DNA of 64,000 bases from a virus, in IMG/VR virus record IMGVR_UViG_3300006871_000008, positions 26,845 through 90,844 of that record. One strand, given 5' to 3'. The translations under genes and the position numbers were made by a program. Below the pieces are notes generated by a model. That model was given only the letters and a program-made list of their open reading frames with translations, was not told where the DNA came from and did not search any database. This document shows, piece by piece, positions 20,379-55,248 of the stretch. How positions within the stretch are numbered: the stretch's first letter is position 1; each line of letters begins with the position of its first letter.

Positions 20379-20945
20379 TCATGCTCCGTAGATAGTATCC
20401 ACCAGCCCAAGTTCCTTTGCTTCCTTGGCCGAGAGGATTAGGTCGGCTGCGCATTTCTTCCGCCAAAAGCTAATTGGCCTGCCCGACCGCTCAGCGTATA
20501 TCTCGTACATACGCTTTTGAGTTTTCTTGGAATACTCCGCCCAATTCTGGAAGGTTGTCGGAATGTCATTGACCCTGGACTCGTAACCATCGTGGACCAT
20601 GACGGTTGCGTTCGGGTAGATGATGCGCTGATCGGCAGCTTGCAAAATGATGCTGCCCATTGACATAGCTGAGCCAACCACGTAGATAGTGATTGGACAG
20701 GGACAGGCTTTGATAGAGTCATACACGGCCATGCCGTTAAACCAACACCCGCCGAAGCTATTGAGATATATCGTAATCTCTTTATCTTGAGCGGCGTTCG
20801 CCAGCATATGCAGGGCTTTTACAGCAAACTCCGATGTTCGCTGATTCACCCCATCTTCCTTATCGTCTCCTATGTAAACTGTGCGCGACTCAACATGAAT
20901 GTCGTAGTCGTAGAACCTATCAATACTCTCACGAACGAGTTTCAT
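20379..20945 (-). CDS. clpP: ClpP-like serine protease
   Basis: YLNSFGG, GSAMSMGS (Ser), MVHD (His), LSAKEAKELGLVD. Confidence 0.9.
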   Translation of the reverse strand: MKLVRESIDRFYDYDIHVESRTVYIGDDKEDGVNQRTSEFAVKALHMLANAAQDKEITIYLNSFGGCWFNGMAVYDSIKACPCPITIYVVGSAMSMGSIILQAADQRIIYPNATVMVHDGYESRVNDIPTTFQNWAEYSKKTQKRMYEIYAERSGRPISFWRKKCAADLILSAKEAKELGLVDTIYGA

Positions 20946-37527: not shown

Positions 37528-38940
37528 TTAGGCGAGCAGAACAGCACCCAAAGCGGTGTCAAGTTCCTTCACGCCGCACAACAGATCAAGCGTGACCATG
37601 AGGCCCTGCTTGGTCGCGTTGTACTGCATCGTCGCGCGAATCGCCATGCCTTCGTCAGCCACAACGCCCGATTGAGCGCCGAATTGCTGCGGGGGCGTGA
37701 CCAGCGGACGGGTGACGAGAGCCAGGGCGTTCCGATGGAAGGCCCAATTGAGGCTGCCGGACGGGCCAGGGAAGGCGGCGTCGTTGTTCGCCAGCGAGGC
37801 GGCAAGCGGACGATCCAGCCAAACCTGAACCTCGGTGTTCGGAGTCACAACATCGACCGCGATGATCGTGTACGTGTGGCTCGAACCACCTGTTCCGAAC
37901 GTAATCAACTGACCAACCTGCGGGGGCTTGGCTGACGTGAACGTATCAATGTTGATACCCTTCACGTAACCAGCCGCGAACGCACCGTTGACCGCAGCGG
38001 CCTTGTAAATCTTGAACGCAGCACCCGCCAGGGTCGCATTGACGTTCGCATTCACAAGGGTAATCGCCGTGGTGTCAGCCATGCTGACAGTGCGGGCCGA
38101 CACGCGATTCGGCTGGCCGTCGCCAACCACAACCACGTACTCACCCACGACAGCATTGTAGCCGGTCAGGGTGACGGCCTGCGAACCCGAACCACCAGCC
38201 GCCAGGGCATTCGTGACCGTGCCGGAGGCATAGTCAGTCGAAGCATCGCTGATGTAGTTCATGTTCTGGCACTCGAAAATATCGAAGCCAAGTTTCCGAC
38301 CGAGCGAGGCTTCACGCAGAGCCGAGCCATCATCGCCAACCTTCTGCGCTTCGAGGAAGCGGCTGTCCGACAACATGGTTGTCGAAGTGGTCGGGGTGAT
38401 GATGAGCCGACGCCCATCGGTGTAAGCCTTGTTGACGTTCAGCCGTTCGCGGAGGGCCAGAATATCCTCGACTGCCGTGCTGGAAGTCATGCCATTCAGC
38501 TTGCCAGCCTTGTTGGCTAGGAACTTGTGGACCTGACCGAGAACAACCTTGTCCACAGCCGTCGCAATGCTCTGCATGGCGGGCTTCACGTACTCCACAA
38601 CCAAGTCCTTGAACGACTTGCTCCATTCTTCATCGCGGATGATGAAGTTGGTGTGGAAGTGCTGATCCAACGGCACGGCCACGTTCGTCGCGGTCGCGTC
38701 TTGGGTGGTCACGTCATCCGTGGAAGTCTTGCGCTTTGCCACGAAGGTTCCCGGCTTCCGGGTGTTGACAATATCGCCGTAGCTGGCGACCTGATTCTCG
38801 AAGTCACGATGGACCAGATTCGAGACGACCATGTTTTCCAACAGGATCGACAGCGACTCATTGGCCCACAATTCCGGGATGTACGCATCCAGGCTGTTCG
38901 AGTAAAGGGCCAGAACCGGCTTGCAAAACAGAGGATTCAT
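37528..38940 (-). CDS. Major capsid protein (P22 coat-like) with large insertion domain
   Basis: PELWA, NLVHRDFE, GDIVN, AFHRNALALVTRPL, DLLCGVK. Confidence 0.9.
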   Translation of the reverse strand: MNPLFCKPVLALYSNSLDAYIPELWANESLSILLENMVVSNLVHRDFENQVASYGDIVNTRKPGTFVAKRKTSTDDVTTQDATATNVAVPLDQHFHTNFIIRDEEWSKSFKDLVVEYVKPAMQSIATAVDKVVLGQVHKFLANKAGKLNGMTSSTAVEDILALRERLNVNKAYTDGRRLIITPTTSTTMLSDSRFLEAQKVGDDGSALREASLGRKLGFDIFECQNMNYISDASTDYASGTVTNALAAGGSGSQAVTLTGYNAVVGEYVVVVGDGQPNRVSARTVSMADTTAITLVNANVNATLAGAAFKIYKAAAVNGAFAAGYVKGINIDTFTSAKPPQVGQLITFGTGGSSHTYTIIAVDVVTPNTEVQVWLDRPLAASLANNDAAFPGPSGSLNWAFHRNALALVTRPLVTPPQQFGAQSGVVADEGMAIRATMQYNATKQGLMVTLDLLCGVKELDTALGAVLLA

Positions 38941-38995
38941 GTGTGATTCCTTATTTGTTTGTGAAACAGACATTTGAAGAACAATCACCCCGGCA

Positions 38996-39868
38996 TTACT
39001 TCAATCCGAGAGCCTCCGGGTTCTCTTTTCGGATTTTGCGGTACTCGGCTGGCGTGAGTTGAGTCACGTCCACCTTTCCTTTACCCGGCTGGCGTGCGCC
39101 GGTCCCACTACTGCCACCCAGGCCACCCTGAGCATTTGACTTAAACAGGTAGCCGTATTCTTCCGGCTTCTGTTTCATCAGGCCCACCGCTTCGTCCGCA
39201 GTAATTACGGCGGTGAGTGGTTCATTCGTCTTGGAATCGACGGTCGGATAATGCACGCGAGGGGCCAACTCTCCCGTGGGTTTTCCTGTCGAGTCAAGAA
39301 CCGGAACCATCTTTGTCATTGGCTGCAAAATCGCAAGAATATGATCCGCGCGATATGCCTCCCCCTTGTTCGCAGCGTCCTGAATGGCTCGCCGGACTTC
39401 GGTAGATTCGTAACGATTTTTCCAAGAGTCCCGTTCCTCGGCCAACTGCTTCGAGGTTTTCGTGGACTCCACCTTGAATTTTTCAAATTCGTGTTTGGCC
39501 TGTTCTTCCTTGGTCCGGTATTGGGCCTGGAAGGATTCGAGGGCCGATTGCAACTCTTGTCGCTGCGACTCCGAGAGATTTTGATTCTCAAGTGCCGCCT
39601 TGTATTGTGTTTCCAGATTGGCAACCTGGGCTTGATGCTTTCGACGATCCTCCGCCAAAAACTTGTTTACATCATCTTGAGTGAACACGCGAGGTTTACC
39701 AGCAGCACCCGCCGCACCACCACCAGCAGCACCAGCAGCACCAGCAGCACCAGCCGCAGCCGCAGCCGCAGCCGCTCCACTACCATCACCTTCCCCGGCC
39801 CCGCCGCCGTCACCTTCACCATCGTACAGAGCCAGAACGGGAACAACCTTCCAAAGCAGATTAGACAT
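38996..39868 (-). CDS. Capsid scaffolding protein
   Basis: FTQDDVN, coiled coil, YLFKS..GGxG, LTPAEY; upstream of the capsid gene. Confidence 0.85.
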   Translation of the reverse strand: MSNLLWKVVPVLALYDGEGDGGGAGEGDGSGAAAAAAAAGAAGAAGAAGGGAAGAAGKPRVFTQDDVNKFLAEDRRKHQAQVANLETQYKAALENQNLSESQRQELQSALESFQAQYRTKEEQAKHEFEKFKVESTKTSKQLAEERDSWKNRYESTEVRRAIQDAANKGEAYRADHILAILQPMTKMVPVLDSTGKPTGELAPRVHYPTVDSKTNEPLTAVITADEAVGLMKQKPEEYGYLFKSNAQGGLGGSSGTGARQPGKGKVDVTQLTPAEYRKIRKENPEALGLK

Positions 39869-40479: not shown

Positions 40480-42624
40480 TTAATTGACATAGGTAATTAC
40501 GATAGCGATTCCATCTGCACCAGCGCCACCAGTACCGGCGGTTGTGGGGTTGTTTGCACAACTCCCGCCGCCACCACCTGCACCAATCGCACCGCCGCTA
40601 CCGCCAGTCCGGGGCGTCGTAGTAATGAAACCACCGCCGCCACCCGCACCGCCCCAATAGTAGCCACTTGAGGCTCCACCATTTCCAGGTACACCGGCAT
40701 TTCCAACATTGCCGCCGACGCCGCCCGTAAATGTGGCGCTGGCAGAATTGCCACCAGCAGAACCTACCACGTTTGTATTAGTAGAACTGAATCCGCCACC
40801 GCCTCCACCGCCAGCCGCAGCACTTGTGTTGCTGCTAAGTGTCGTGGAACCGCCAGCGGTTGAGACATTGTTGCTATTGCCATTGCCGCCTGCACCGCCC
40901 GCTAACGCACCGGCACCGCCACCGCTACCAACTCCACCAGCACCACCTGCCGCTCCCGTAGTCGTGTTATTAGTTCCGCCACCGCCTCCACCGCCACCGC
41001 CAGCACTAAGAGTAATGCCAGCGCCGCCCGTACCGACAAAGGAACTTGCTGTTCCAGCTACTCCACCGCTACCATTGGTGTCATTGGTTGAGGCACCGGC
41101 ACCGCCAGTACCGCCAGTACCGCAAGTGATTGTGTCACCATCATTGAACAGTGCAGCGTTAAACAGTCCAGTAGTAAAGGCACCACCGCCTCCACCGCCT
41201 CCACCGCCGCGAGTTGAGCTAACAGCACCGCGACGACCGCCGCCTCCACCGCCACCGGCACCAATCAAAATAACTTCGACAGCCGTGGCCCCGGAGGGCT
41301 TTGAGTACGCTGCTGTGCCGCCAGTAGATACTACTTGAATGGCTACGCCATTCTGTCCGGGCGCACCTGTGTTACCTGTGTTACCCTTATCTCCCGCTCG
41401 CGCGAAAAACACCTTGACCGTATCGCCATTCGAGATAGTGCCAGTGCTAACTAAGTTGGTCACAGAAATCTTGTCGTAACTGCCCGCATCGGTGTTTGCA
41501 GCAACAATCGTAAAGACAATAAGATTCTGTGGCGCACCATCTTTCACAATTAGGATTTGACCACGATCAGTGAAGTTGGTGCTGTCGTCCCAACTCGCAA
41601 TCCAGTTAGCTAAACCGTTGCCATCCCCGTCAGTTTCATTGATGTAGATTTTTGTGACTGAGCCAATTGTGGCGTTATCAAATCGCAATTTGCCGGAACC
41701 GGGATCAGCGTCAGTTGTGCCGTTATCGAAGGTGTACTTGATTCCAGCATCGCGTCCCGCAGCACCCGTTGAGCCAGTCGAACCCGTTGAGCCAATATCA
41801 CCTGTGCGAATAAACTCAAGTTTGACGGGATCGTTGTTTGAGAACGTGCCATTAGAAACTACGTTGGCAACCGTCAAAGTGTCCCACGTCCCATTATCCG
41901 TCAAGGTTCCAGTTACGTTAAACAGTGCGAACTTGGCAGGGTTCGTATTATGCCGCATTAGGATTTGGCCCTTCACTGTGGAAGTGCTATCATCCCAAGC
42001 ATTGACATAGGCTCCTATTCCGTTTGCGTCCCCATCTGTTTCGGAAATATACAGAGCCGTGGCAGAAGCAAGAGTTGTGTTATTGAAACGCAAAGTTCCA
42101 GAGCCAGGATCGGCAGCGGTAGTTGTGGTGCTATAAGTGTATAGTAAACCAGCATTCCTACCATCGGCTCCATTAGACCCGTTGCTTCCATTGGAACCAT
42201 CATTGCCTGTATAAGAGGCCCAGATGCGAACGTAATCGCCGTTCGAGATTGATCCAGCCAGGATTTCGCCAACATTGAGTGTGTCCCAAGTACCGTTGTC
42301 AGTGTTGGTTCCGGTCACGTTGTAGATGAACAACGAGCCAGTTGATTCCACCATTATGTAAAGCCTAGCATGAACGGCATTGGTTGAATCATCCAAGGCA
42401 GCGAGCAGGCTTGCTACATTGTTTCCATCGGCATCTGTCTCGCTGATTGCGATTTGCGTGGCCGGTGGAATATTGAATCGAAACTTGCCGGAACCTGGGT
42501 CGGCAATTGTCGTGTTGGAATCATATTGAAACCGAATACCACCCGCTGCACCGACTACTGAATCGGCGGCGGCAACTTGCTGGACCTGACCAGCGCTGAT
42601 GATAAGGGGTTTCTTGATAGCCAT
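40480..42624 (-). CDS. Head fibre with three tandem domains and a glycine-rich tip
   Basis: Three DPGSGxxRF..ETDxDGN..DDST repeats with GxxGxx linkers; Gly-rich C-terminus. Confidence 0.75.
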   Translation of the reverse strand: MAIKKPLIISAGQVQQVAAADSVVGAAGGIRFQYDSNTTIADPGSGKFRFNIPPATQIAISETDADGNNVASLLAALDDSTNAVHARLYIMVESTGSLFIYNVTGTNTDNGTWDTLNVGEILAGSISNGDYVRIWASYTGNDGSNGSNGSNGADGRNAGLLYTYSTTTTAADPGSGTLRFNNTTLASATALYISETDGDANGIGAYVNAWDDSTSTVKGQILMRHNTNPAKFALFNVTGTLTDNGTWDTLTVANVVSNGTFSNNDPVKLEFIRTGDIGSTGSTGSTGAAGRDAGIKYTFDNGTTDADPGSGKLRFDNATIGSVTKIYINETDGDGNGLANWIASWDDSTNFTDRGQILIVKDGAPQNLIVFTIVAANTDAGSYDKISVTNLVSTGTISNGDTVKVFFARAGDKGNTGNTGAPGQNGVAIQVVSTGGTAAYSKPSGATAVEVILIGAGGGGGGGRRGAVSSTRGGGGGGGGGAFTTGLFNAALFNDGDTITCGTGGTGGAGASTNDTNGSGGVAGTASSFVGTGGAGITLSAGGGGGGGGGTNNTTTGAAGGAGGVGSGGGAGALAGGAGGNGNSNNVSTAGGSTTLSSNTSAAAGGGGGGGFSSTNTNVVGSAGGNSASATFTGGVGGNVGNAGVPGNGGASSGYYWGGAGGGGGFITTTPRTGGSGGAIGAGGGGGSCANNPTTAGTGGAGADGIAIVITYVN

Positions 42625-43106
42625 TACAGCTTAATCGGAGCAGTTGTGTCAATGTCCATTTCGGTGGCGCTGATCGCAAGGCCACACTTCACAACAAATT
42701 GTCCTGTGGTCGTTGGGGCTGTTTGAGTCAGCTTGCCTGCCGTACCAGCATCCAAGTAATAGACCGCACCCGGCGTCAAACCACCTGTTTCGCCAGTGAC
42801 AGCATCCCACTGTCCAGTCGTAGCAGCCAGCACGCCGTCTGTTTGGATGTTTCCAGAGGCCGCTGCCGCAATGGATGTATCGGCGACTAGGCCGAGAATC
42901 TGCACCGTACCTTGAGCATTAGCACGCCCCTTGTCCACGTTGCCATTTGACTTGACATAAACTGGCGCACCAATGACAATCGAACCAGCATTGTCATTTG
43001 TTTTGGCAATCACGTCAACTTCGGTGACGGACGCATTGAGCGTATCGCCAGCCTGTAGTTGCTCGATTTGGCCGTTCGTAATTACTAGCGGTTTCTTAGC
43101 TGACAT
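42624..43106 (-). CDS. Head decoration/cement-like protein (KKPL family)
   Basis: Paralogue of 50738-51220. Confidence 0.65.
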   Translation of the reverse strand: MSAKKPLVITNGQIEQLQAGDTLNASVTEVDVIAKTNDNAGSIVIGAPVYVKSNGNVDKGRANAQGTVQILGLVADTSIAAAASGNIQTDGVLAATTGQWDAVTGETGGLTPGAVYYLDAGTAGKLTQTAPTTTGQFVVKCGLAISATEMDIDTTAPIKL

Positions 43107-43110
43107 GGTT

Positions 43111-43650
43111 TTACAGTCGTATGACTGGTCCTATTTCAATGTCGAATTTCTTGGTATTTTGTGCCCGCCCGATTTTGACAACATAGTAGCCATCGGCTGT
43201 CGGTGCGGTAGTGGTCATCTTGCCCGGCGTGCTATCCAGAAAATAGATTGCTCCGGGAACCAAATCAGTGCTGCCAGTAATGCCTGACCAATCGGCAAGT
43301 TCTAGCGTGTAGTCAGTGTAGTAGTCCCCACCGACACCGACCAACGTATCGTTAATCATCAGCCCGGCAACTTGTGCAGTAGCAATCGAGTTGTTGGCGG
43401 CTTTCTGCAATCGACCAGTATTGTCGATGTAGATAATCTCACCTTCACTCAAATTCTCCGCAGCCTCGGCATTGTATGGGCTGGTTGTCCCGCCAATCAA
43501 ACCTTGTGCATATCGTTGTGTGGCAATGACTTCTGCAACGATTTGGTCGTAGGACGGATAAGCAGGGCCAGAGTCAATTTGTCGTGAGTCTCGATCAGCA
43601 GCAGTCCCGTCCCAGACTTGTGCTGGAAACTGTGCTTTGCGCTCAGACAT
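43111..43650 (-). CDS. Head decoration protein (WDG family plus cement-like domain)
   Basis: Paralogue of 51220-51732. Confidence 0.65.
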   Translation of the reverse strand: MSERKAQFPAQVWDGTAADRDSRQIDSGPAYPSYDQIVAEVIATQRYAQGLIGGTTSPYNAEAAENLSEGEIIYIDNTGRLQKAANNSIATAQVAGLMINDTLVGVGGDYYTDYTLELADWSGITGSTDLVPGAIYFLDSTPGKMTTTAPTADGYYVVKIGRAQNTKKFDIEIGPVIRL

Positions 43651-44498
43651 TAGTACCCTTTCTTGAAATCCAGAATATGCCACTTACCATTCTGGCCTTC
43701 ATAGATTACATCGAGGTAGCTGATTGACAGTGGACGATCCGAGGGTGTGACACTTTCATTCCCGTAATGGAAGCCGCTGCCCAGACTCAGGAATCGGCCA
43801 CCAGTTGCATCTTGCTGAATGCGAATCAAAATTCGCTTGCCATCTACGCCGTTGATCGGGGCCTTGAGGATTGAGTTTTCGAGCAGTAGGATATGGAACA
43901 GGTTGCCTTGCGAAGCGTCCACTTCGAGAACCTTGCAGCTATCGACTTTGATAAGTTCGACCGCATCGCCTCTTGGACCTTGTGGGCCGGGCGGTCCTTC
44001 TGGACCTTGCGGGCCTTGCACACCTTGCGGGCCGATTGGACCTTCAACGCCTCTTGGACCGAGGGGGCCGGGCGGTCCACCTGGATCGCCGGTATCTCCC
44101 TTCGGGCCTCTCGGACCTTGCGGGCCGGGTGGACCATGCGGGCCTTGGAATCCTTGTGCGCCTTGCAAGCCGACTCGACCCTCTGCTCCGGGTTCACCTT
44201 GCGGGCCAATTGGGCCGGGCGGGCCGGGCAAGCCTTGATCGCCTCGCTCGCCTTTGGGGCCAGCGGGACCGATTGGACCTTGCGGGCCGGGCGGACCACC
44301 GGGCGTGCCGGGGTCGCCTTTTGGACCTTGCGGGCCGGGCAAGCCGAGCGGAATGCGACCTTCGAGAATGGCCGACTCAATAGCCTGAATCTCGGTGGTG
44401 AGTACGCGCATGTCCCGATAGTCGGGGTTAATGGTGTCAGACGAATGCTGACGGTTGGGCGTTAGCCCGTCCCAGACTTGTTCGGGGAACTTACTCAT
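43650..44498 (-). CDS. Collagen-like fibre protein
   Basis: Long GPxGPx run; WDG N-terminus; [10 protein letters not shown]-domain. Confidence 0.85.
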
Positions 44499-46272: not shown

Positions 46273-47988
46273 TTAGAGGAAAGCTGTAATACTGCGAGCG
46301 GAGGCAACCGCAGCCGCGAGAGGCAAAGCAATCTCGGCATAGGTCTGGGCGTGGGCGTAGTGGTCCGGCCCTGTCTCGACGTAACGGGCAACTACGTTCC
46401 CATCATCGTCCGTTTCATAGCGTCTCGCAGGCGCTTTAATTTGCTCTTTGTACTCGATTGGGGTGTCTTGGGGTAGATCAATTGACCCGTTGTAATACCG
46501 GCCAAGCGTTGCATCCAGCCAACTCGTCCGGTCAACCGTAGCCATTGGCGCTCCGGTTTCTTGCTCGGAGAGGGCAATTTCCTTACCCACAACGCCACGA
46601 CGGTAACGGCAAAGTGTCACGTATCCTGGGAAGCGTCGAGCAAAGCGGCGGGCATCGTTAATGTTGGGGTCGGCATCCAGCACGCAATGCCGCACCTGCC
46701 ATTCCCGCATCAGCCGGTCGAATTGAGGGAAGTCACCCTCAGCAACCTTACCCATCCATAGAACCTTACACTTCGCATTGGCATTCAAATCGTAGCCGAG
46801 CCGGTCATAGGTCCACTCATTTACCACGACATAATGCCATTTACCTTGGTCGATGCCCATTGTTATGAGTCGCTTGCCGCCAACAGCCGGGCGTGCATCA
46901 CTCAATCTATGCGAACTTTTCGCAATAGCCGCCTCAATATGCTCGTCTCGAACCTGGGCATCTGAGGCTAAGTAGGCTTCACCTAGTTTTGAGTTCTTGA
47001 ATTCCTGCATTGCGACTTCTGATCGGAGGCCAAGCAAGTATCGTTCTGCGATTTCTGCCGGGCTGATCGTCGCGCTGTAAAGCTGATTGATATGAAAGCC
47101 ACGATGGTCTGGACTATTGCCACTGGTAGCTTCCCATTGGCCGGGTTGTAAGTAGGCAGCTTTGCCCTCATCAATCCATCCATCCTCGCCAGGAATACGG
47201 CCAGTCTCATGCGTGCTAAGAGTCGTCTTGCACTCATAGCAAAGTAGTCGAGAACGAAACCGATCAGGGTCATTAGGTGTTTCACCGCAAACCTCAAAAC
47301 TCTCCGGCCATTTGAGTTCGATTTTCTTGCCACAGTGCGGGCACGGAAAGAAAAAGTGTTCCTGCGTGCTTCGCTGGTACTGCAAGTCGATTCCAAAGCC
47401 AGGAATCGTTGGGGTCGAGAGCATGAATACATGCTTGTGAATCTGGCCCGATAATCGTTCAAGGGCCAACCCAACTGACTTCTCCCGCATTTCGTCAAAT
47501 TCGTCCAGAATCAACTCTGAGACGGGGATCGACTTCAAGCCTGATTCGCTGTTAGCGCCACGGATGTAAAGAGCCGCCCCGGCAGCCTGCTTCAAGTCGA
47601 TTTTGTTGGTGTCAGAGAACATCCCCGCAAGGTACGGGCTAAGTTCTAATGCACCACCAAAGCGAACCGCTGAGAAGTCGGCGGCATCGGGCACTTTCGT
47701 TGGAAGAACGTACAGCACCGAACGGCGATGTACGTCAAGGGTGAACAATGCTCGATTGATTGCTACTTCTGTGAAGCCTGCCTGTGCCGATTTCTTTGCC
47801 GTCATGTACGGGCAATCGGCGTCGTGAATCTCTCTGCACCACGGATGATACTTGAACGTGTACGGGCCGGGAACAGGCGCACCCATGATTCGCCGTGCTT
47901 GTGCCCATTTGCTGCAACTGGTCAGCGTCTTATTTCGTAAACCAGTAGCGATTGCAAGCCTTATCTCATCAAACAGCTTGGTCGCCAT
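46273..47988 (-). CDS. terL: Terminase large subunit (lambda GpA-like)
   Basis: KSAQAGFTE, LDEFD, STPT, CPHC/CYEC, GFHINQLYS, GIDQG, DHYAHA. Confidence 0.93.
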   Translation of the reverse strand: MATKLFDEIRLAIATGLRNKTLTSCSKWAQARRIMGAPVPGPYTFKYHPWCREIHDADCPYMTAKKSAQAGFTEVAINRALFTLDVHRRSVLYVLPTKVPDAADFSAVRFGGALELSPYLAGMFSDTNKIDLKQAAGAALYIRGANSESGLKSIPVSELILDEFDEMREKSVGLALERLSGQIHKHVFMLSTPTIPGFGIDLQYQRSTQEHFFFPCPHCGKKIELKWPESFEVCGETPNDPDRFRSRLLCYECKTTLSTHETGRIPGEDGWIDEGKAAYLQPGQWEATSGNSPDHRGFHINQLYSATISPAEIAERYLLGLRSEVAMQEFKNSKLGEAYLASDAQVRDEHIEAAIAKSSHRLSDARPAVGGKRLITMGIDQGKWHYVVVNEWTYDRLGYDLNANAKCKVLWMGKVAEGDFPQFDRLMREWQVRHCVLDADPNINDARRFARRFPGYVTLCRYRRGVVGKEIALSEQETGAPMATVDRTSWLDATLGRYYNGSIDLPQDTPIEYKEQIKAPARRYETDDDGNVVARYVETGPDHYAHAQTYAEIALPLAAAVASARSITAFL

Positions 47989-48802: not shown

Positions 48803-49183
48803 TTAATCTCCGAAGAATAGCGGTGAGACTTTCGACGACTCGGACGGTTCATCGGCTGGCGGCTTGTCATATTGAAGGAACAGCAGGGCAATCTTGATAA
48901 TGATTGGCAGCCAAGTCACAATCAGGTCAATCCAGTGCGACCAGTCAATGTCGCCCGTCGTGGCGGATTCGGGGTCGTAGGCAAGCAATTCTTCTCGGCA
49001 ACGATCTTCAATCCGGGACATGATTGGATTCATGTAGTACCGGCCACCCCGCTGCGACCCCTGCACAATGTCATAGAGCAGGTAGGCATCGGAACCGTTT
49101 ATATGCCCGTTACGCCATCCGCGCCAAATGGCACGGCGTAATGCTCGCCGGAAAATAAGAGCCGGGCGTCGAATAATCGCCAT
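48803..49183 (-). CDS. Small protein with basic N-terminus and an amphipathic/TM helix
   Basis: IDWSHWIDLIVTWLPIIIKIALLFL. Confidence 0.65.
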   Translation of the reverse strand: MAIIRRPALIFRRALRRAIWRGWRNGHINGSDAYLLYDIVQGSQRGGRYYMNPIMSRIEDRCREELLAYDPESATTGDIDWSHWIDLIVTWLPIIIKIALLFLQYDKPPADEPSESSKVSPLFFGD

Positions 49184-49186
49184 CGC

Positions 49187-49774
49187 TTACTTTCCTTCAA
49201 GTTTGGATTCGAGGAACTCGCGGCTGTGACCAGCACCATTTCCGCGATACACAACCTTACCGTCTCGCACAACTGCGACAACCGGCACAGAACTAATGCC
49301 CCACGCATTTGCACTTGCCCTATCTTGGTCAATGTCCACTATGAAAACTTTGTGCTTACCGGCGTCTTTGATAGACTCGATGACCGGCTTTTGCGAGCGG
49401 CAAGGCCCGCACCACGTCGCTGTGAAATAGATCAGGTAGTCTTTGGGTTGAGCAGCGTTCTCACTCTTAGCCACTCCCGCTCCGTTTGTCGCCTTTGGCG
49501 CATCGTTAGAAACGGGCGTAGCCGGTTCTTTCTCAGCAACCTTCGCAGATTCCGTTCCTGGCGTTCCACTCTCCGCCGACGCAGTTTGTTCGGCCTCTCC
49601 GAGTCCAAGACCGTAATCAATCGCTGTAGCTGTTCGATCAGCCTCGACCACTTGAACGTGCCCCTCGACAGGTCCAGTAGAGTTGAACGAATGAGCCGCT
49701 TTAGGACAAGCCACGCACGCAGCATAAGCCACCGCCATCAGCATACAAGCGCTGTGTAAAAGCCAAAATTTCAT
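49187..49774 (-). CDS. Exported or membrane-anchored thioredoxin
   Basis: Hydrophobic N-terminus MKFWLLHSACMLMAVAYAA, low-complexity linker, FTATWCGPC, cis-Pro SVP. Confidence 0.88.
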   Translation of the reverse strand: MKFWLLHSACMLMAVAYAACVACPKAAHSFNSTGPVEGHVQVVEADRTATAIDYGLGLGEAEQTASAESGTPGTESAKVAEKEPATPVSNDAPKATNGAGVAKSENAAQPKDYLIYFTATWCGPCRSQKPVIESIKDAGKHKVFIVDIDQDRASANAWGISSVPVVAVVRDGKVVYRGNGAGHSREFLESKLEGK

Positions 49775-49796
49775 GGAATGACCCCCTAGCTGCCGA

Positions 49797-50738
49797 TTAG
49801 AATAATCGGTAATCAAGGTCTTGGGATTCAAAACCTGTGTAGCCTGACATTGCATAGCTATCATCCTGTCGGAGCATTGCATCGGCCACTTCGGCATCAA
49901 CCCAGAACGAACCGGAGGGTTGGTTGTGTCGGGTCGGGCCAGAAATCCAATCCTCGCCCCAACTATTCCAGCACAGCAAGCCGGGCCGACTATACTCGTC
50001 GTCCACGGAAACGAACAACATACAGTGACTCCAAGAGCCACTTGGACGGGCAAAGCCGTCCTTGTCCCGCACGCTGCGGAACCCATAATTTGAGCAGACG
50101 GGCACAGGATAGCCGTTCGCAATTGCATCACGCGCTTCCTCATATGACCGCACAGGAGAGACTGTCTTGACCGGATGCTCTTTGCCGATTGGCTCAAGTT
50201 CATCGGGCGCTCCCGCGCGAGGCGCACCCCACCGACGAGAAATCTCACCACTGTAGTTGGTCAAATCATACTTGCCGTCCAGATACTTCATCCGATGGAG
50301 TGTGCCGTATTTCACGACACCTTCGGCAGCCCATGCACCGTTGGAGCCATCGCCCCAACCGCAACCACCGCGCCCAATTTCAACGCGCGAAATGGCATAA
50401 ATGTACTCAGTCGAAGCCTTAGCGGCGAACTTTTCTCGCTTGCCAGCCTTGATTTCGGAGGCTTGCAGCACGTCCACGCCCATGCCCCAACCCTGGCTAA
50501 CGCATGTACCGTAGTTACCCTGATTGTGCGAGCGGCATTGAGGATCAACGACTTCACGGTAAAATTCGTGCAGAAGGACGATTTTGCCCTTCCCGCTATC
50601 CTGAATCGCCGGCGCTGCCGTCTTGAATTGCCCCATCGGGCCAAGACTGGCATGATATGCGGCAATATCTTCCCGCTTCGGCTGCCAACCAGCCAGAGAG
50701 CCAGCGGCGTGCAGATCAAGAATGTTGTAGTCGGCCAT
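49797..50738 (-). CDS. Papain-like (C1) cysteine protease
   Basis: NQGNYGTCV (Gln/Cys), SHCM (His), WNSWG (Asn). Confidence 0.9.
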   Translation of the reverse strand: MADYNILDLHAAGSLAGWQPKREDIAAYHASLGPMGQFKTAAPAIQDSGKGKIVLLHEFYREVVDPQCRSHNQGNYGTCVSQGWGMGVDVLQASEIKAGKREKFAAKASTEYIYAISRVEIGRGGCGWGDGSNGAWAAEGVVKYGTLHRMKYLDGKYDLTNYSGEISRRWGAPRAGAPDELEPIGKEHPVKTVSPVRSYEEARDAIANGYPVPVCSNYGFRSVRDKDGFARPSGSWSHCMLFVSVDDEYSRPGLLCWNSWGEDWISGPTRHNQPSGSFWVDAEVADAMLRQDDSYAMSGYTGFESQDLDYRLF

Positions 50739-51220
50739 TATAGCTCCACAGGCTGTTCGATGGTGATTTCAAGTTCTGTCGGACTCAGGGCCTTGCCGAC
50801 GCGAGCAACAAGCTGGCCGGTGGCGCTCGGTGCAGTCGAAGTCAGGTGTCCAGCGGTCGTCGGGCTGAGGAAGTAGATCGCGCCCGTCGTAAGACCGCCA
50901 ACTTGACCTGTGATGGCATCCCATTGGCCGGTTGTGGCCGTTAGAACACCGTCTGTTTGAATCATGCCGGGCTGGCCCGCTGCCACAGAGGCATCCTTGA
51001 CCAGACCCAAGACTTCCGAAGTGGCGTAGGCATCAGCCTTCGCCTTGTCAACGGTGTCAGCAACGGTCGTATAGACCGGCGTACCGATGACGATTGCGCC
51101 CGCATTGCCGTTGGTTTGCGAGATTACATCAACCTCCGACACGACTGCATCCAGGGTATCACTGGATTGAAGTTGCCGGATACGGCCATTGACCATTACT
51201 AGGGGTTTTCGTGCAGCCAT
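50738..51220 (-). CDS. Head decoration/cement-like protein (KPL family)
   Basis: Highly similar to 42624-43106. Confidence 0.65.
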   Translation of the reverse strand: MAARKPLVMVNGRIRQLQSSDTLDAVVSEVDVISQTNGNAGAIVIGTPVYTTVADTVDKAKADAYATSEVLGLVKDASVAAGQPGMIQTDGVLTATTGQWDAITGQVGGLTTGAIYFLSPTTAGHLTSTAPSATGQLVARVGKALSPTELEITIEQPVEL

Positions 51221-51732
51221 TAGAGTCCTATCGGTGACTCGATGCGAATATCGAGTGTTTCAGGCGTTAGTGCTTTACCCAACTGCACGACAAATTCGCC
51301 GGGCAGACTTGGTGGTTCCGTGGTTATGAGTCCTGCGATTGTTGGGTGTAGGAAATAAGTCGCACCGAGCGATAGTTTTTCAGTCAGTGCGACAGCAGAC
51401 CAATCTTCTCTTGTGACTTGACCTGATGACCCGCAAACGGCTTCTGAGCCTGTTGGAGCATCGACAAACACAAATCCACAGGCGTCTGCATGGGTTTCAT
51501 CGTTAGCTTGGGCAGGCCAAATTCGGTTGTTGAACACGTAAAATGGCTGGCCCGCGAGCATGTTTTGGCCGGTCATTAGGGTGAATGCCCCTGCCGACTC
51601 TGCCACGGCTCTCTGTGTGGCCTGCACCTGCGACGTGATCTTCTGCCAGTCGGCCCCATCCGGGGCTGCGTAGGTGTGCGGATCGTTGCGAGTCGCGGAT
51701 TGGCCGTCCCAAATCAGTTGTTCGAGCGGCAT
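51220..51732 (-). CDS. Head decoration protein (WDG family)
   Basis: Similar to 43111-43650. Confidence 0.65.
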   Translation of the reverse strand: MPLEQLIWDGQSATRNDPHTYAAPDGADWQKITSQVQATQRAVAESAGAFTLMTGQNMLAGQPFYVFNNRIWPAQANDETHADACGFVFVDAPTGSEAVCGSSGQVTREDWSAVALTEKLSLGATYFLHPTIAGLITTEPPSLPGEFVVQLGKALTPETLDIRIESPIGL

Positions 51733-52061
51733 AGTTCAACCCACAGGCCATTGTCGTACAGCAATGTTATCGTGTCCCGGATGCTGTCTAGGTTACAATT
51801 ACCTGCTAAGGCAAGGTTTCCTGTTACATCTTTTAAGGTAATAGTCCTGGCATCATCAAATGCCATCAGAACTAACACGTCGCTTTGCTGGCCTCCATTG
51901 ATCGTTATTAAGTTCGTTGTTCCGGTGGTCGGTGAAGTGACTTTGTGGAACGATTTTGTAACTGTGATTGCCCCACCGATAACTGTCAGCGTTGTCGGGA
52001 CATTTAGTGAAACCTTATCAAGTTGCTTGATTCGGCCACTTATCATCCCCAAGGGGCGCAT
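51714..52061 (-). CDS. Small fibre-tip-like protein with RPL..GRIKQL N-terminus
   Basis: N-terminal motif shared with the KPL family. Confidence 0.6.
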   Translation of the reverse strand: MRPLGMISGRIKQLDKVSLNVPTTLTVIGGAITVTKSFHKVTSPTTGTTNLITINGGQQSDVLVLMAFDDARTITLKDVTGNLALAGNCNLDSIRDTITLLYDNGLWVELCRSNN

Positions 52062-52241
52062 CTAGTTAAAACTTCGCAACGTCTTGTACAAAGCAATCTG
52101 CCGTTTCGTCTGGGCCGAAGCATTGGCCGGTGGGTGGGCCGCATACTGTGCCACAGTTTCGCCAGCCGCCTTTGCCTTACGAGTCAGTGAGCCTTTGTGT
52201 TTGATCGCGCCTTGAATCCAGTTTTTCTTCTGCTTTGCCAT
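52062..52241 (-). CDS. Small Lys/Ala-rich protein (59 aa, not in the ORF track)
   Basis: MAKQKKNWIQGAIKHKGSLTRKAKAAG...LYKTLRSFN. Confidence 0.75.
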   Translation of the reverse strand: MAKQKKNWIQGAIKHKGSLTRKAKAAGETVAQYAAHPPANASAQTKRQIALYKTLRSFN

Positions 52242-52243
52242 GA

Positions 52244-52384
52244 CTACTTCCCCTTGCCGGCTTTCTTTGGCTTAACATGCTCTGGTAACTTGGCTCCCTT
52301 CGGAGTGTGAGCCGCAAACTCTTTGGCGAGGGCTGGCTTGTTAGCATACAAGAAAGCCCGTTGTGCTTTGCTTTTGAATGGCAT
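52244..52384 (-). CDS. Small basic protein
   Basis: MPFKSKAQRAFLYANKP... Confidence 0.75.
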   Translation of the reverse strand: MPFKSKAQRAFLYANKPALAKEFAAHTPKGAKLPEHVKPKKAGKGK

Positions 52385-52385
52385 T

Positions 52386-52580
52386 CTAGTAGCCCATTTC
52401 TTGTGCAGCAGGTTGTCCTGTTGGGCCATTACTGTTGTGAGCAGGGGCCACGTCACCACCCGGACCATCGGCTGTATCACCCGGTTCTGGATGGTCAATC
52501 AACTCTACGTTGTCGGCACAATCAGGACAGCCAACCTTTGCCATCGGGCTGTACGAGCCGAAGCTATTTGCTTGTGCCAT
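52386..52580 (-). CDS. Small hypothetical protein
   Basis: Tightly packed ORF. Confidence 0.55.
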   Translation of the reverse strand: MAQANSFGSYSPMAKVGCPDCADNVELIDHPEPGDTADGPGGDVAPAHNSNGPTGQPAAQEMGY

Positions 52581-52582
52581 GA

Positions 52583-52708
52583 TTATTGCTCCGACTTCGG
52601 TGTGGCTTTGACGCCTTTCACGGCGGGTGTGGCCTCTTTCGCCACTTGCGAACCCGACTTGCCGGGGACTGTTGACTTGGAAATGTCGATTTTACCAGTT
52701 GCTTTCAT
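52583..52708 (-). CDS. Small basic protein (41 aa)
   Basis: MKATGKIDISKS...; GAGGT SD. Confidence 0.6.
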   Translation of the reverse strand: MKATGKIDISKSTVPGKSGSQVAKEATPAVKGVKATPKSEQ

Positions 52709-52710
52709 GC

Positions 52711-53439
52711 TTACCTCTTTCCCTCTTTGGCGATTTTCTCCAAAGCAATGCCGATGTTAGCCCAGAGAGAAGCGTGTGACGGCATATCGGCGAGCCGTCC
52801 AGCCTTACTTTCAGCGTTCAGGTACTTCCTGAGTTCCTCACCAAAGCCCTGCCATGCCGGACCAGCACTACCAAGAGACGCCTTGTTGCTGATTGCGGTT
52901 GCCTTGATTACATCTTCGGGGGTTTTGAGCAGGTTGGCGGAGATTTGCTGCGAGACACTGTGAAAAGAACTAGCGATGGCGTTGGCTTCATTCACCCACG
53001 TATCACTTTTGACCAGCTTCAACCAGTCCCGAATCTTGGCTTCAACGCCGGATGGTCCGGGTTCCGGTGGGACAACGCCCTCGACCACAATGGTCACAGA
53101 GACTAGATCAACAGTGTTGTCTTTCGCACCAGCAATCCAGAAAGTGTATGCACCGGGCTTGTCGCCGCTGAAAAATGCCCGTTTTCCATCCTCAATGACC
53201 GCGAAATTGTCAGTTTTGGGCGTGACTTGCCACTTGAACTTGCTTACTTGGCTCTCGGAGGCGTCCAAAATGACCAGTTGGCCGATCTTGGCAGTCTCAA
53301 CTGCCTTCACGACAACCTTGGCGTCCGTATCACCATCAGTGATTCGGATTCCACCATAAATTCCGGCCCCTGCCGCGCCACCGCTCAGGATCAACGCCAG
53401 CCACAGAACCCACTTCATCCAGGGAGATTGCGTATTCAT
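52711..53439 (-). CDS. Exported protein with PKD/Ig-like domain, Pro linker and helical domain
   Basis: N-terminal TM; LVILDASES..FKW..PGAYTF; PPEPGP. Confidence 0.7.
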   Translation of the reverse strand: MNTQSPWMKWVLWLALILSGGAAGAGIYGGIRITDGDTDAKVVVKAVETAKIGQLVILDASESQVSKFKWQVTPKTDNFAVIEDGKRAFFSGDKPGAYTFWIAGAKDNTVDLVSVTIVVEGVVPPEPGPSGVEAKIRDWLKLVKSDTWVNEANAIASSFHSVSQQISANLLKTPEDVIKATAISNKASLGSAGPAWQGFGEELRKYLNAESKAGRLADMPSHASLWANIGIALEKIAKEGKR

Positions 53440-53573
53440 GTTACCTTACTGTGTGAAAGAGTCGGATGTTTCGTGATTTGCCGTCGAATCGTTCTTGATC
53501 TATGGCAAAGCAATCTTCGCAGCGACCTTCCAGATGGTATGCTGGCAGCACGGAACGCCCGCACCGGCACTGA

Positions 53574-53970
53574 TTAACTGACTTCCCAACCGTCGAGTGG
53601 CTCGTCCGAGGGTTCCTCGCCGCGCCGTAGTGCTTCCTTCGCCGACCGCCTGTTCGCTTTATTGTGCTTTCGTCGTAGCCAGCGCTTATGCCGTGGACGC
53701 CCTGAATAATGGTCAGGTTGCCCTTCGCCGTTCTCACCGTTGAGCATTGTCCATGCCTTTTGCCACTCAGTCCGTCTGGTCTTTGACACTTTTCAGCGTC
53801 TCCTGCCGAGTTGGGCCTTCGTACTTTCGTCGATTTCCGCAACAGTATCGGCTGCATGAGGCTAAGTGGTTGGCGAGTTTAATCGCAAAGGTGGGCGGTG
53901 CGAACCAGTAAATCTGCTTTGCCTTGTTTTTCTTTCGGGCGAGGGCGGCTCGCCGCTCTGCTCGTTTCAT
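53574..53970 (-). CDS. Two small basic ORFs (about 53574-53789 and 53767-53970)
   Basis: Arg/Lys-rich; CSRYCCGNRRK motif. Confidence 0.55.
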
Positions 53971-53976
53971 TGCAAG

Positions 53977-54048
53977 TGACCCCGAAGGGAATCGAACCCT
54001 CATTCTTCGGTTGAAAGCCGCTAGTCCTAGCCATTAGACGACGGGGCC
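53977..54048 (-). tRNA. tRNA-Glu(TTC), weak anticodon stem
   Basis: GGCCCCG acceptor, CTTTCAA loop, GGTTCGATTCC. Confidence 0.8.
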
Positions 54049-54117
54049 ATTTTAGGCCCGACGTTCCAAGTGAATTCCAATTTTGTCAGCGAATTTCATA
54101 CGTCACCGTCTTTCAAT

Positions 54118-54190
54118 AGCCGCCCGTAGGACTCGAACCTACAACCTGGGGATTACAAATCTCCGGCTCTGCCAATTGAGCTAGGGAGGC
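54118..54190 (-). tRNA. tRNA-Thr(TGT)
   Basis: TAGCTCAATTGGCAGAGC, TTTGTAA loop, GGTTCGAGTCC. Confidence 0.85.
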
Positions 54191-54196
54191 TAAAGG

Positions 54197-54366
54197 AAAC
54201 CCTCTCACCGATTCGCTAGGCGGGTTCGGCACACCTTTGTACGGTTGCATCACTTCCGAGAGGGTTGATCGGCGGGTACTAGCCGCCGAGGGGTCTGATG
54301 CTGCGCATTTTGACCGGGCCTAGATACGGGTCACTGTGCCTTGCAGCCAGGAGAGCCGAACCCGGT
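54197..54366 (-). ncRNA. Unassigned structured RNA with pseudoknots
   Basis: Crossing 10-bp and 9-bp helices plus two hairpins; strand inferred from the neighbouring genes. Confidence 0.6.
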
Positions 54367-54375
54367 ATGTTACGC

Positions 54376-54585
54376 TTACTCGGCGTGGGCGTGGAACAGG
54401 CCAGCCATCGCGGTCTTTGTCAGATAGCGAAGGATGAGGTTCACACCCGAAAGGCCAAGTCCAATCGCGGCCACAAGGTCGGGATTGTTGGTAATCAGGT
54501 TGTGGTCGATGACATACGTGCCAAATCCCGCAATCAGGACAAGGGCGTTGACAATGACCGTCTTAGAAAGCACTAACTTCGGCAT
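54376..54585 (-). CDS. Holin-like two-TM protein
   Basis: SKTVIVNALVLI...GVNLILRYLT. Confidence 0.6.
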   Translation of the reverse strand: MPKLVLSKTVIVNALVLIAGFGTYVIDHNLITNNPDLVAAIGLGLSGVNLILRYLTKTAMAGLFHAHAE

Positions 54586-55114
54586 CTTCGGTTTCTCCCG
54601 CCGTCTTAACGGCATCAATTAGGCGAGTGGCAATGCGTTCCAGCACGTCCTCGCTACCGGGTAATTCTGCGGTTTCCTCAGAGCAGATTTGGACTGCTTC
54701 GGCGGCAAACTGCAACAGAGCAGCCCGATCCACCGTCAAGCCAGCCGACTTTTCAACCTTCACACACTCCGAGACAAGTGACTTTGCCGTGAGCAAAAGG
54801 TTGTTGAATGTATTGATTTTGGACTCAAAACTGCCTTCGCTGGCGTTCATTAAGTCTGCGAATCGTTGGATTGCAGTCCGAATCAACGCAACTTCGGCTC
54901 GAAGGGACAGAATATCCTCGCGGTCGGACATTTGACCGTATAGACCGCGAAGTTCGGCTTGGGCCAAGTCGTACATTCGACGCTCGGCCTTCTGCGCCTT
55001 TGCTCGTCCGCCGTGCCGATTGCACAAATCCGTGCCGGGTACGACGGGATGCGGGCATTGCCCGAATTCGCCGGTACGTTGGCAACGATTGTCGTGGTCA
55101 GCAGGTCGTGGCAT
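54563..55114 (-). CDS. Probable terminase small subunit
   Basis: RC..C..C.RHGG Zn motif followed by LRAEVALIR helices; first gene of the late block. Confidence 0.6.
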   Translation of the reverse strand: MPRPADHDNRCQRTGEFGQCPHPVVPGTDLCNRHGGRAKAQKAERRMYDLAQAELRGLYGQMSDREDILSLRAEVALIRTAIQRFADLMNASEGSFESKINTFNNLLLTAKSLVSECVKVEKSAGLTVDRAALLQFAAEAVQICSEETAELPGSEDVLERIATRLIDAVKTAGETEDAEVSAF

Positions 55115-55248
55115 CGGAAATCCCTTCATAGAGATATATCGGGCAAAACGACCCATTTTGCCAGTAGAAAATGGAAATTTTCGCCAGATTTTTGCAAATC
55201 CAGGCCCAGAAAGGACTTACAATGCCAAAAATTTGTCGATTTTTGGCC

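Follow-up and report, generated by a model that had tools for sequence, protein, structure and literature searches.

The 64,000-nucleotide stretch of viral DNA analysed here (the window, bases 26845–90844 of the IMG/VR record IMGVR_UViG_3300006871_000008) carries a gene for a papain-type cysteine peptidase (49797–50738) that is followed directly by a gene for a thioredoxin with a predicted export signal (49187–49774). All gene coordinates given are window positions; the source record is a 90,844-bp linear phage with a CheckV completeness of 89%. Judged from gene order, the block that holds the two genes is a mobile, conserved phage cassette, inserted between the genes for the small (TerS) and large (TerL) terminase subunits in this phage's clade. 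The cassette is real and widespread, and the literature searched does not describe it: full-text searches yielded no description of a lysis module composed of a papain-type protease and a thioredoxin, and a 2023 survey of papain-like enzymes names only CHAP, NlpC/P60 and Pei-type enzymes as phage lysins (PMC10318531). The protease–thioredoxin pair probably serves to open the host envelope in a manner not described so far, and on balance we lean towards assigning the cassette as a protease-based module for host lysis or exit.

A divergent papain-type peptidase

The peptidase gene (minus strand) encodes a product of 313 amino acids (P0001) that gave no match in Pfam, in PHROG or among PDB sequences even at E ≤ 10, and the PF00112 profile likewise failed to match it at this threshold. 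An AlphaFold2 model based on an alignment of 62 homologues (pLDDT 94, pTM 0.92) exhibited the two-domain papain fold, and the top Foldseek ranks were taken by xylellain, cathepsins S and B, and Lpg2622 of Legionella. Cys79 and His238 are present in all 62 homologues, Gln73 in 61 and Asn258 in 51 (with Gln in eight), while the adjoining Ser259 (59/62) and Trp260 (60/62) complete an N-S-W motif. The spacing of six between Gln and Cys is the same as in papain. Fold and residue conservation thus support an earlier note on this DNA, made from the sequence alone, that had proposed a C1 protease with a Gln/Cys/His/Asn set; the catalytic set appears intact and of C1 type, and peptidase activity is predicted.

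Homologues of the protein form a family of 1,604 clusters (50% identity, E ≤ 1e-3), of which 522 are reached at E ≤ 1e-30, and the Atlas labels the family as 84–100% viral. One homologue, P0094, did match PF00112 (1.4e-5, 25.7 bits), as did 20% of the members of one Atlas cluster. Within the C1-like fold, the family is hence best placed as a divergent sister group and not as a Pfam-defined member.

The open frame comprises 323 amino acids and leaves only 10 in-frame codons upstream of the ATG, too few to hide a signal peptide. The product is therefore predicted to be cytoplasmic, as the earlier note had held. In the structural comparison, proenzymes aligned from model residue 1, mature enzymes only from about residue 29–49. 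Consequently, the N-terminal 30–50 residues resemble the propeptide portion that lies over the active site, a pro-segment-like assignment derived from the ranges of the alignments and not from coordinates. N-terminal anchors, signal peptides or Tat-like motifs of their own occur in about 28 of 150 family representatives (~19%), which points to an extracytoplasmic site of action.

Many family members are interrupted by inteins. One to three of them, with LAGLIDADG or Hint domains, were present in each of ~35 of the 150 representatives (23%), and one Atlas cluster has 71 intein-bearing members. The insertion sites lie exactly before Cys79, which then forms the +1 residue, or just after His238 (His238/Cys239). 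Such an intein load is unusually high for a phage gene outside replication and packaging; inteins at active sites are typical of genes that a phage cannot afford to lose.

A thioredoxin with a predicted export signal

The second gene of the pair (49187–49774, minus strand) starts 22 nt after the stop codon of the protease gene. Its product matched PF00085 (1.4e-14, 54.3 bits at a cut-off of 23.5) and phrog_22, contains the motif WCGPC, and has classical thioredoxins as its nearest PDB sequences. Hydropathy revealed a hydrophobic N-terminal segment (residues 3–24) preceded by a positive n-region. Since this pattern of hydropathy and charge fits a Sec signal, the protein is predicted to be exported, with a low-complexity linker of ~80 residues between the signal and the WCGPC domain. 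A WCGPC thioredoxin with an export-type N-terminus, as anticipated in the earlier note, is thus well supported.

The same architecture recurred in relatives: in 48 of 50 distinct thioredoxins, the N-terminus contains a hydrophobic segment, with positive charge before its core and neutral or negative charge after it. CxxC is kept in 49 of the 50, and the dipeptide between the cysteines varies widely. A lipobox was found in only two of the 54 thioredoxins of the cluster. One lineage linked to ribonucleotide reductase (RNR; loci L068–L119) exhibits an extra conserved domain (motif AEGYVAF) between signal peptide and thioredoxin fold. In 12 loci, namely L056:3408-3737, L057:3225-3545, L058:2104-2421 and nine further loci, the exported thioredoxin is directly followed by a protein of ~105 amino acids with two to three transmembrane (TM) segments and an invariant-looking HCPYCLSHW motif (cluster t103tm2). 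This protein, which is absent from the window, could act on the thioredoxin as a membrane redox partner, comparable to DsbB, VKOR or CcdA.

Conservation of the pair

To survey the pair, we ran an IMG/VR conserved-block search with a 21-sequence alignment, which showed at least 486 loci with relatives of the protease, 80 of which were fetched; queries with the single proteins P0009 and P0098 found one IMG/VR locus each. Pairing was counted in 100 loci (the fetched ones plus other loci) that offered at least 900 nt downstream of the protease, and thioredoxins were detected with an iterated hidden Markov model (HMM) built from four seeds. A same-strand thioredoxin gene lay directly downstream of the protease gene in 68 of these 100 loci, mostly at a gap of –9 to +22 nt, and the pair occurred in 13 of the 22 protease lineages obtained by clustering at 60% identity. 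The gene-neighbourhood linkage that the earlier note had proposed to test is accordingly confirmed for protease and thioredoxin by this adjacency, which marks protease and exported thioredoxin as a real functional pair.

Two gene orders were prevalent in the description of the neighbourhoods. The window type runs from a probable TerS through a small TM protein, a PKD protein, protease, thioredoxin and one or two small TM proteins to TerL and portal. The second type consists of a 70-aa and a 119-aa protein with two TM segments each, a 150-aa anchored helical protein, protease, thioredoxin, a 95-aa protein and RNR. Genes for the RNR large subunit were located two to five genes downstream in 22 loci.

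Among the bacterial genomes sampled, strong homologues were present in 5/301 Planctomycetota and 2/301 Bacteroidota genomes, the latter including Flexithrix dorotheae and G470. At the Planctomycetota locus L040, the protease and a WCPYC thioredoxin, both TM-anchored, and a TM protein lie just ahead of a T4-type terminase and a λ-type portal. The thioredoxin is adjacent in L040 and in L041, also from Planctomycetota, and missing from the Bacteroidota locus L039, numbers that are far too small to build on. The pair thus accompanies a gpA-type TerL, a T4-type Terminase_6N (in the Planctomycetota prophage) or RNR genes. As its occurrence in Planctomycetota chromosomes before a different terminase and portal type also shows, it travels between packaging modules. 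In Flexithrix dorotheae (G002), the two halves of the homologue lie at the ends of two contigs (C50:283-765 and C84:92-514); perhaps the gene was broken by assembly at an intein or a repeat.

The cassette between the terminase genes

The late genes of the window lie almost all on the minus strand, and every cassette gene listed in the earlier note was recovered there on that strand. A Pfam scan of the 31 late proteins identified a gpA-type large terminase, a P22-type coat protein, a tape measure protein, a collagen-repeat protein and a ClpP-like protease. The downstream edge of the cassette is the gene for the large terminase subunit of gpA type (46273–47988, minus strand; GpA_ATPase 1.1e-29, GpA_nuclease 2.9e-8, own TerL cluster HMM 1.3e-256). 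Its upstream edge is formed by the gene 54563–55156 (minus strand; cluster z183, own cluster HMM 1.3e-34), the product of which had its sole database match in phrog_3678, a family without assigned function. PDB-sequence searches with this protein and with a 138-aa protein encoded before TerL returned nothing. In L135 and L137–L141, all of which lack the cassette, z183 homologues directly precede TerL and portal; these loci represent more distant TerL relatives (43–45% identity). Because of this arrangement, 54563–55156 was read as a probable TerS, assigned by position and synteny alone, and the cassette as an insertion between TerS and TerL. Synteny thereby bears out the location that had been claimed for it.

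Directly after the probable TerS follows a gene for a holin-like small membrane protein of 69–80 amino acids (54376–54618, minus strand), for which hydropathy predicted TM segments at approximately residues 12–39 and 48–66. A small TM protein occupies the place right after z183 in the relatives L050, L072, L082 and L115 as well. At the other end of the cassette, the gene 48803–49183 (minus strand; cluster v120tm, own cluster HMM 4.8e-5) encodes a 126-aa protein with an Arg-rich N-terminus. The earlier note had seen an amphipathic-helix protein here; the gene was verified, and a C-terminal TM helix (residues 82–106) emerged as a further feature, so that we describe the product as a putative tail-anchored membrane protein. 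Homologues directly follow the thioredoxin gene in L125, L126, L130, L132 and L134. The enzyme is thus accompanied, as in lysis cassettes, by small proteins with one to three TM segments (two in 54376–54618, one in 48803–49183), and clustering of flanking genes indicated that such proteins are conserved in relatives.

The conserved upstream partner of the protease is encoded by 52711–53439 (minus strand; cluster A266tm). It displays a PKD/Ig-like β-sandwich fold and a C-terminal four-helix bundle and is predicted to be exported or anchored, in line with the exported PKD-like protein proposed before. A possible role as a chagasin- or staphostatin-like inhibitor was considered; no fold of this kind was among the matches listed for it. 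Profile–profile comparison detected no relationship between the alternative upstream partners A266tm and B151tm. A 59-aa basic protein (52062–52241, minus strand) is 74% identical in the closest relative, L004, where its gene lies beside the protease gene, between it and that of the PKD protein. The window itself has three head-fibre-like paralogues between PKD protein and protease (50738–52061), which resemble 42624–43683. They are missing at the same place in L004, and only the 59-aa protein intervenes there.

The cassette also contains genes for tRNA-Glu(UUC) (53976–54048) and tRNA-Thr(UGU) (54117–54191), located between the holin-like and the PKD-protein genes. The open reading frame (ORF) 53879–54034 overlaps tRNA-Glu and is thus not a gene. 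A promoter and terminator scan of the cassette block performed no better than shuffled sequences. Elsewhere in the window, a gene for a ClpP-family protease (20379–20945; PF00574, 1.7e-34) is situated at the far end of the tail-fibre block, outside the head module. The early region (genome positions 1–26844, outside the window; L002, L003) encodes a Trypsin_2 peptidase, NifU-like and GmrSD-like proteins, a DNA ligase and an amidoligase.

Search for endolysins

To our knowledge, a muralytic endolysin is what every well-studied tailed phage of walled bacteria uses to break peptidoglycan. No cell-wall hydrolase was detected in the Pfam scan of the 31 late proteins, and Pfam scans of ~134 ORFs across the whole 90.8-kb record found no endolysin family; about one tenth of the genome is unseen, which limits genome-wide negatives. 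We extended the search to a six-frame comparison of 11 carrier records of at least 84% completeness (seven of them at least 96% complete, sizes up to 226 kb) with 10 endolysin families, i.e., Phage_lysozyme, Amidase_2, SLT, Peptidase_M15_4, M23, NlpC/P60, CHAP, GH19, GH25 and GH108. No match was obtained, neither in this genome nor in the other carriers. Amidase_3, M15_3 and Muramidase likewise gave no match in five complete carriers. Control genomes were positive for most endolysin families, but not for GH19, GH108 and Muramidase. One carrier, the 38.5-kb temperate phage G604 (97% complete), has the protease gene in addition to an S78 prohead protease of its own and to genes for TerS, TerL, portal and HK97 capsid, and a Pfam scan of all its 57 ORFs revealed no muralytic family. 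No muralytic enzyme was thus found in the cassette or in the genome, and the absence of a recognisable endolysin that the earlier note had remarked upon extends from this phage to ten other near-complete carriers.

Several observations speak against a lytic role. The sister phage G648, which is complete (direct terminal repeats), 84 kb in size and syntenic, lacks the protease, thioredoxin and PKD genes and was likewise negative for four endolysin families. It may therefore be characteristic of these lineages that their lysins are hard to detect. The anti-correlation between cassette and endolysins, which the earlier note had proposed to test, is suggestive and uncontrolled, since no lysin was identified in cassette-free G648 either. 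(Three lysin candidates in G648 were checked against the PDB and rejected, as their matches were to radical SAM and glycosyltransferase proteins. The region L142:10504-13545 of this phage, beyond the tail-fibre gene, encodes a radical-SAM-like protein, E 1e-6 to SkfB and PqqE, and a family-2 glycosyltransferase-like protein.) Furthermore, about one third of the loci have no thioredoxin gene, and in one large lineage the pair stands beside RNR instead of packaging genes. The family was not found in any of 50,697 GenBank phages, and no cultured phage carries it. The small TM proteins match no holin family, and 54376–54618 gave no family match of any kind. Finally, the characterised C1 enzymes that we know of cut proteins, not peptidoglycan.

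Discussion

With these points weighed, we still lean towards a module for host lysis or exit, for which the following mechanism can be envisaged. The peptidase would accumulate in the cytoplasm in a latent form and gain access to the periplasm at the end of infection through the holin-like membrane proteins or, in about a fifth of the family members, by its own signal or anchor. The exported thioredoxin would keep or restore the free thiol of Cys79 in the oxidising periplasm and may also reduce disulfides of the target, while the PKD protein might position the enzyme on its envelope substrate. Cleavage of a load-bearing component of the envelope, be it envelope or tether proteins or the peptide bridges of peptidoglycan, would then free the progeny. 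The specific version in which lysis proceeds by proteolysis and not by murein hydrolysis, with a holin-released, zymogen-like protease that is kept active by thioredoxin, targeted by the PKD protein and directed at proteins that hold the envelope together, is put forward tentatively, as less likely than not. In BFVD, some phage proteins have C1-like domains annotated alongside peptidoglycan-binding or muramidase modules, so a wall-associated target is plausible either way.

The earlier note had pictured a cell wall of disulfide-linked protein, of the kind ascribed to Planctomycetota and Chlamydiota, in which the thioredoxin reduces the cross-links and the protease digests the wall in place of an endolysin. 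Cystine-rich envelope proteins have been described for Planctomycetes. The strong homologues in Planctomycetota genomes, with the thioredoxin adjacent in L040 and L041 and not in the Bacteroidota locus, agree with this picture, as does the lack of any peptidoglycan hydrolase, even a virion-associated one, in the carriers searched. Planctomycetes, however, do have peptidoglycan (PMC4432640, PMC4432595), which renders the premise of a purely proteinaceous wall outdated, and the family also occurs in Bacteroidota. The claim that such a wall replaces peptidoglycan is not supported. The wide variation of the CxxC dipeptide argues against one tuned redox task, and comparison of the phage ClpP with five bacterial genomes gave ~30% identity throughout and hence no discrimination of the host. 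We consider digestion of a cross-linked protein wall unlikely; a thioredoxin that keeps the catalytic Cys reduced in an oxidising periplasm accounts for the data no less well than one that reduces wall cross-links. A comparably small chance is given to an envelope function other than lysis, i.e., remodelling of surface or periplasmic proteins for receptor destruction, superinfection exclusion or the freeing of progeny from debris. The predicted extracytoplasmic location of the partners, the movable nature of the cassette with its varied genomic contexts and the fact that G648 manages without it would all suit such a function. Yet the membrane would have to be permeabilised before the ~80% of proteases that lack an export signal could get to the envelope, the cassette belongs to a late operon in this clade, and no other lysin was found in any carrier searched.

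The protease could alternatively serve in virion maturation by removing the N-terminal PVLALY leader that capsid and scaffold proteins share (37528–38988 and 38996–39868). Papain-type enzymes favour hydrophobic P2 residues, and the protease gene lies near the head genes. Its position, though, is upstream of TerL among genes for exported proteins, and the export signals in some members together with the two exported partners indicate the envelope rather than the capsid as its site. G604 possesses its own S78 prohead protease beside an HK97-type capsid; in at least that carrier, head maturation is thus not the task of the C1 enzyme, in line with the earlier note's reading. The window phage, moreover, has the ClpP-like protease, and since G648 has homologous capsid and scaffold proteins and no C1 protease, the leader is probably not cut by this enzyme. 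A maturation role thus appears very unlikely to us. Even less credence is due to a pair of unrelated cytoplasmic jobs, with the thioredoxin as reductant of RNR and the protease as a host-takeover enzyme. Phage T4 encodes its own thioredoxin for RNR, and the 22 loci with RNR large-subunit genes nearby conform to such a division of labour; against it stand the Sec-type signals of 48 of the 50 thioredoxins, the failure of Pfam ORF scans to find RNR in this genome and the persistence of the adjacency in lineages without RNR.

A module for lysis or exit can be compared with several known systems. As in λ S-R-Rz/Rz1 and other holin–endolysin cassettes, small membrane proteins flank a signal-less enzyme beside packaging genes; the λ genes lie just upstream of the terminase genes. 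Unlike those cassettes, the present one encodes a two-domain papain-family peptidase and not a muramidase, an amidase or a known peptidoglycan endopeptidase. It further differs from holin–endolysin–spanin cassettes by an obligate-looking exported thioredoxin and a PKD partner, no spanin was recognised in it, and its lytic role is a predicted one. The alternation of cytoplasmic and signal-anchored forms among family members is reminiscent of signal-arrest-release (SAR) and other signal-anchored endolysins, among which P1 Lyz has its catalytic cysteine caged by a disulfide and thus controlled by thiol–disulfide chemistry. The pseudomurein endoisopeptidases PeiW and PeiP of methanogen viruses and the CHAP and NlpC/P60 lysins are also cysteine peptidases of the papain-like superfamily (clan CA) that serve as lysins. 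They differ in belonging to families C71, C51 and C40, in their smaller folds and in acting on wall peptides, and six-frame searches of the carrier records gave no CHAP or NlpC/P60 match. These lysins, which PMC10318531 lists, are described as thiol-dependent.

In relation to MEROPS family C1 (xylellain, PDB 3OIS; procathepsins B, K and L; Lpg2622), the present peptidase is too divergent for PF00112, which only some of its relatives match; the family is viral, its active site is often interrupted by inteins, and it is encoded with a thioredoxin. The presumed role of the latter has a parallel in E. coli DsbG and DsbC, periplasmic reductases of thioredoxin fold that protect the single catalytic cysteine of L,D-transpeptidases. 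Both pairings join a thioredoxin-fold protein, here one with a predicted export signal, to an envelope enzyme that needs a free cysteine; in the phage, unlike in DsbG/DsbC, a classical Trx1-type WCGPC domain follows a signal peptide, is phage-encoded and appears translationally coupled to its presumed client. Baculovirus V-CATH, which acts together with chitinase, offers a precedent for a virus-encoded C1 protease that is made as a latent proenzyme and breaks down host barriers late in infection. V-CATH differs in that it stems from a eukaryotic virus, acts on tissue rather than a cell envelope and has no thioredoxin partner.

If our assignment is correct, the cassette would represent a lysis effector of a new class, employed by hundreds of uncultured phages, among them phages of Planctomycetota, and would explain why many uncultured phages lack a recognisable lysin. 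For intein biology, the very frequent insertions at catalytic residues are of interest in their own right. The pair would also be a natural example of a cysteine enzyme that is sent into an oxidising compartment together with its protector, and it would open a way into the biology of the envelope in poorly cultured hosts such as Planctomycetota.

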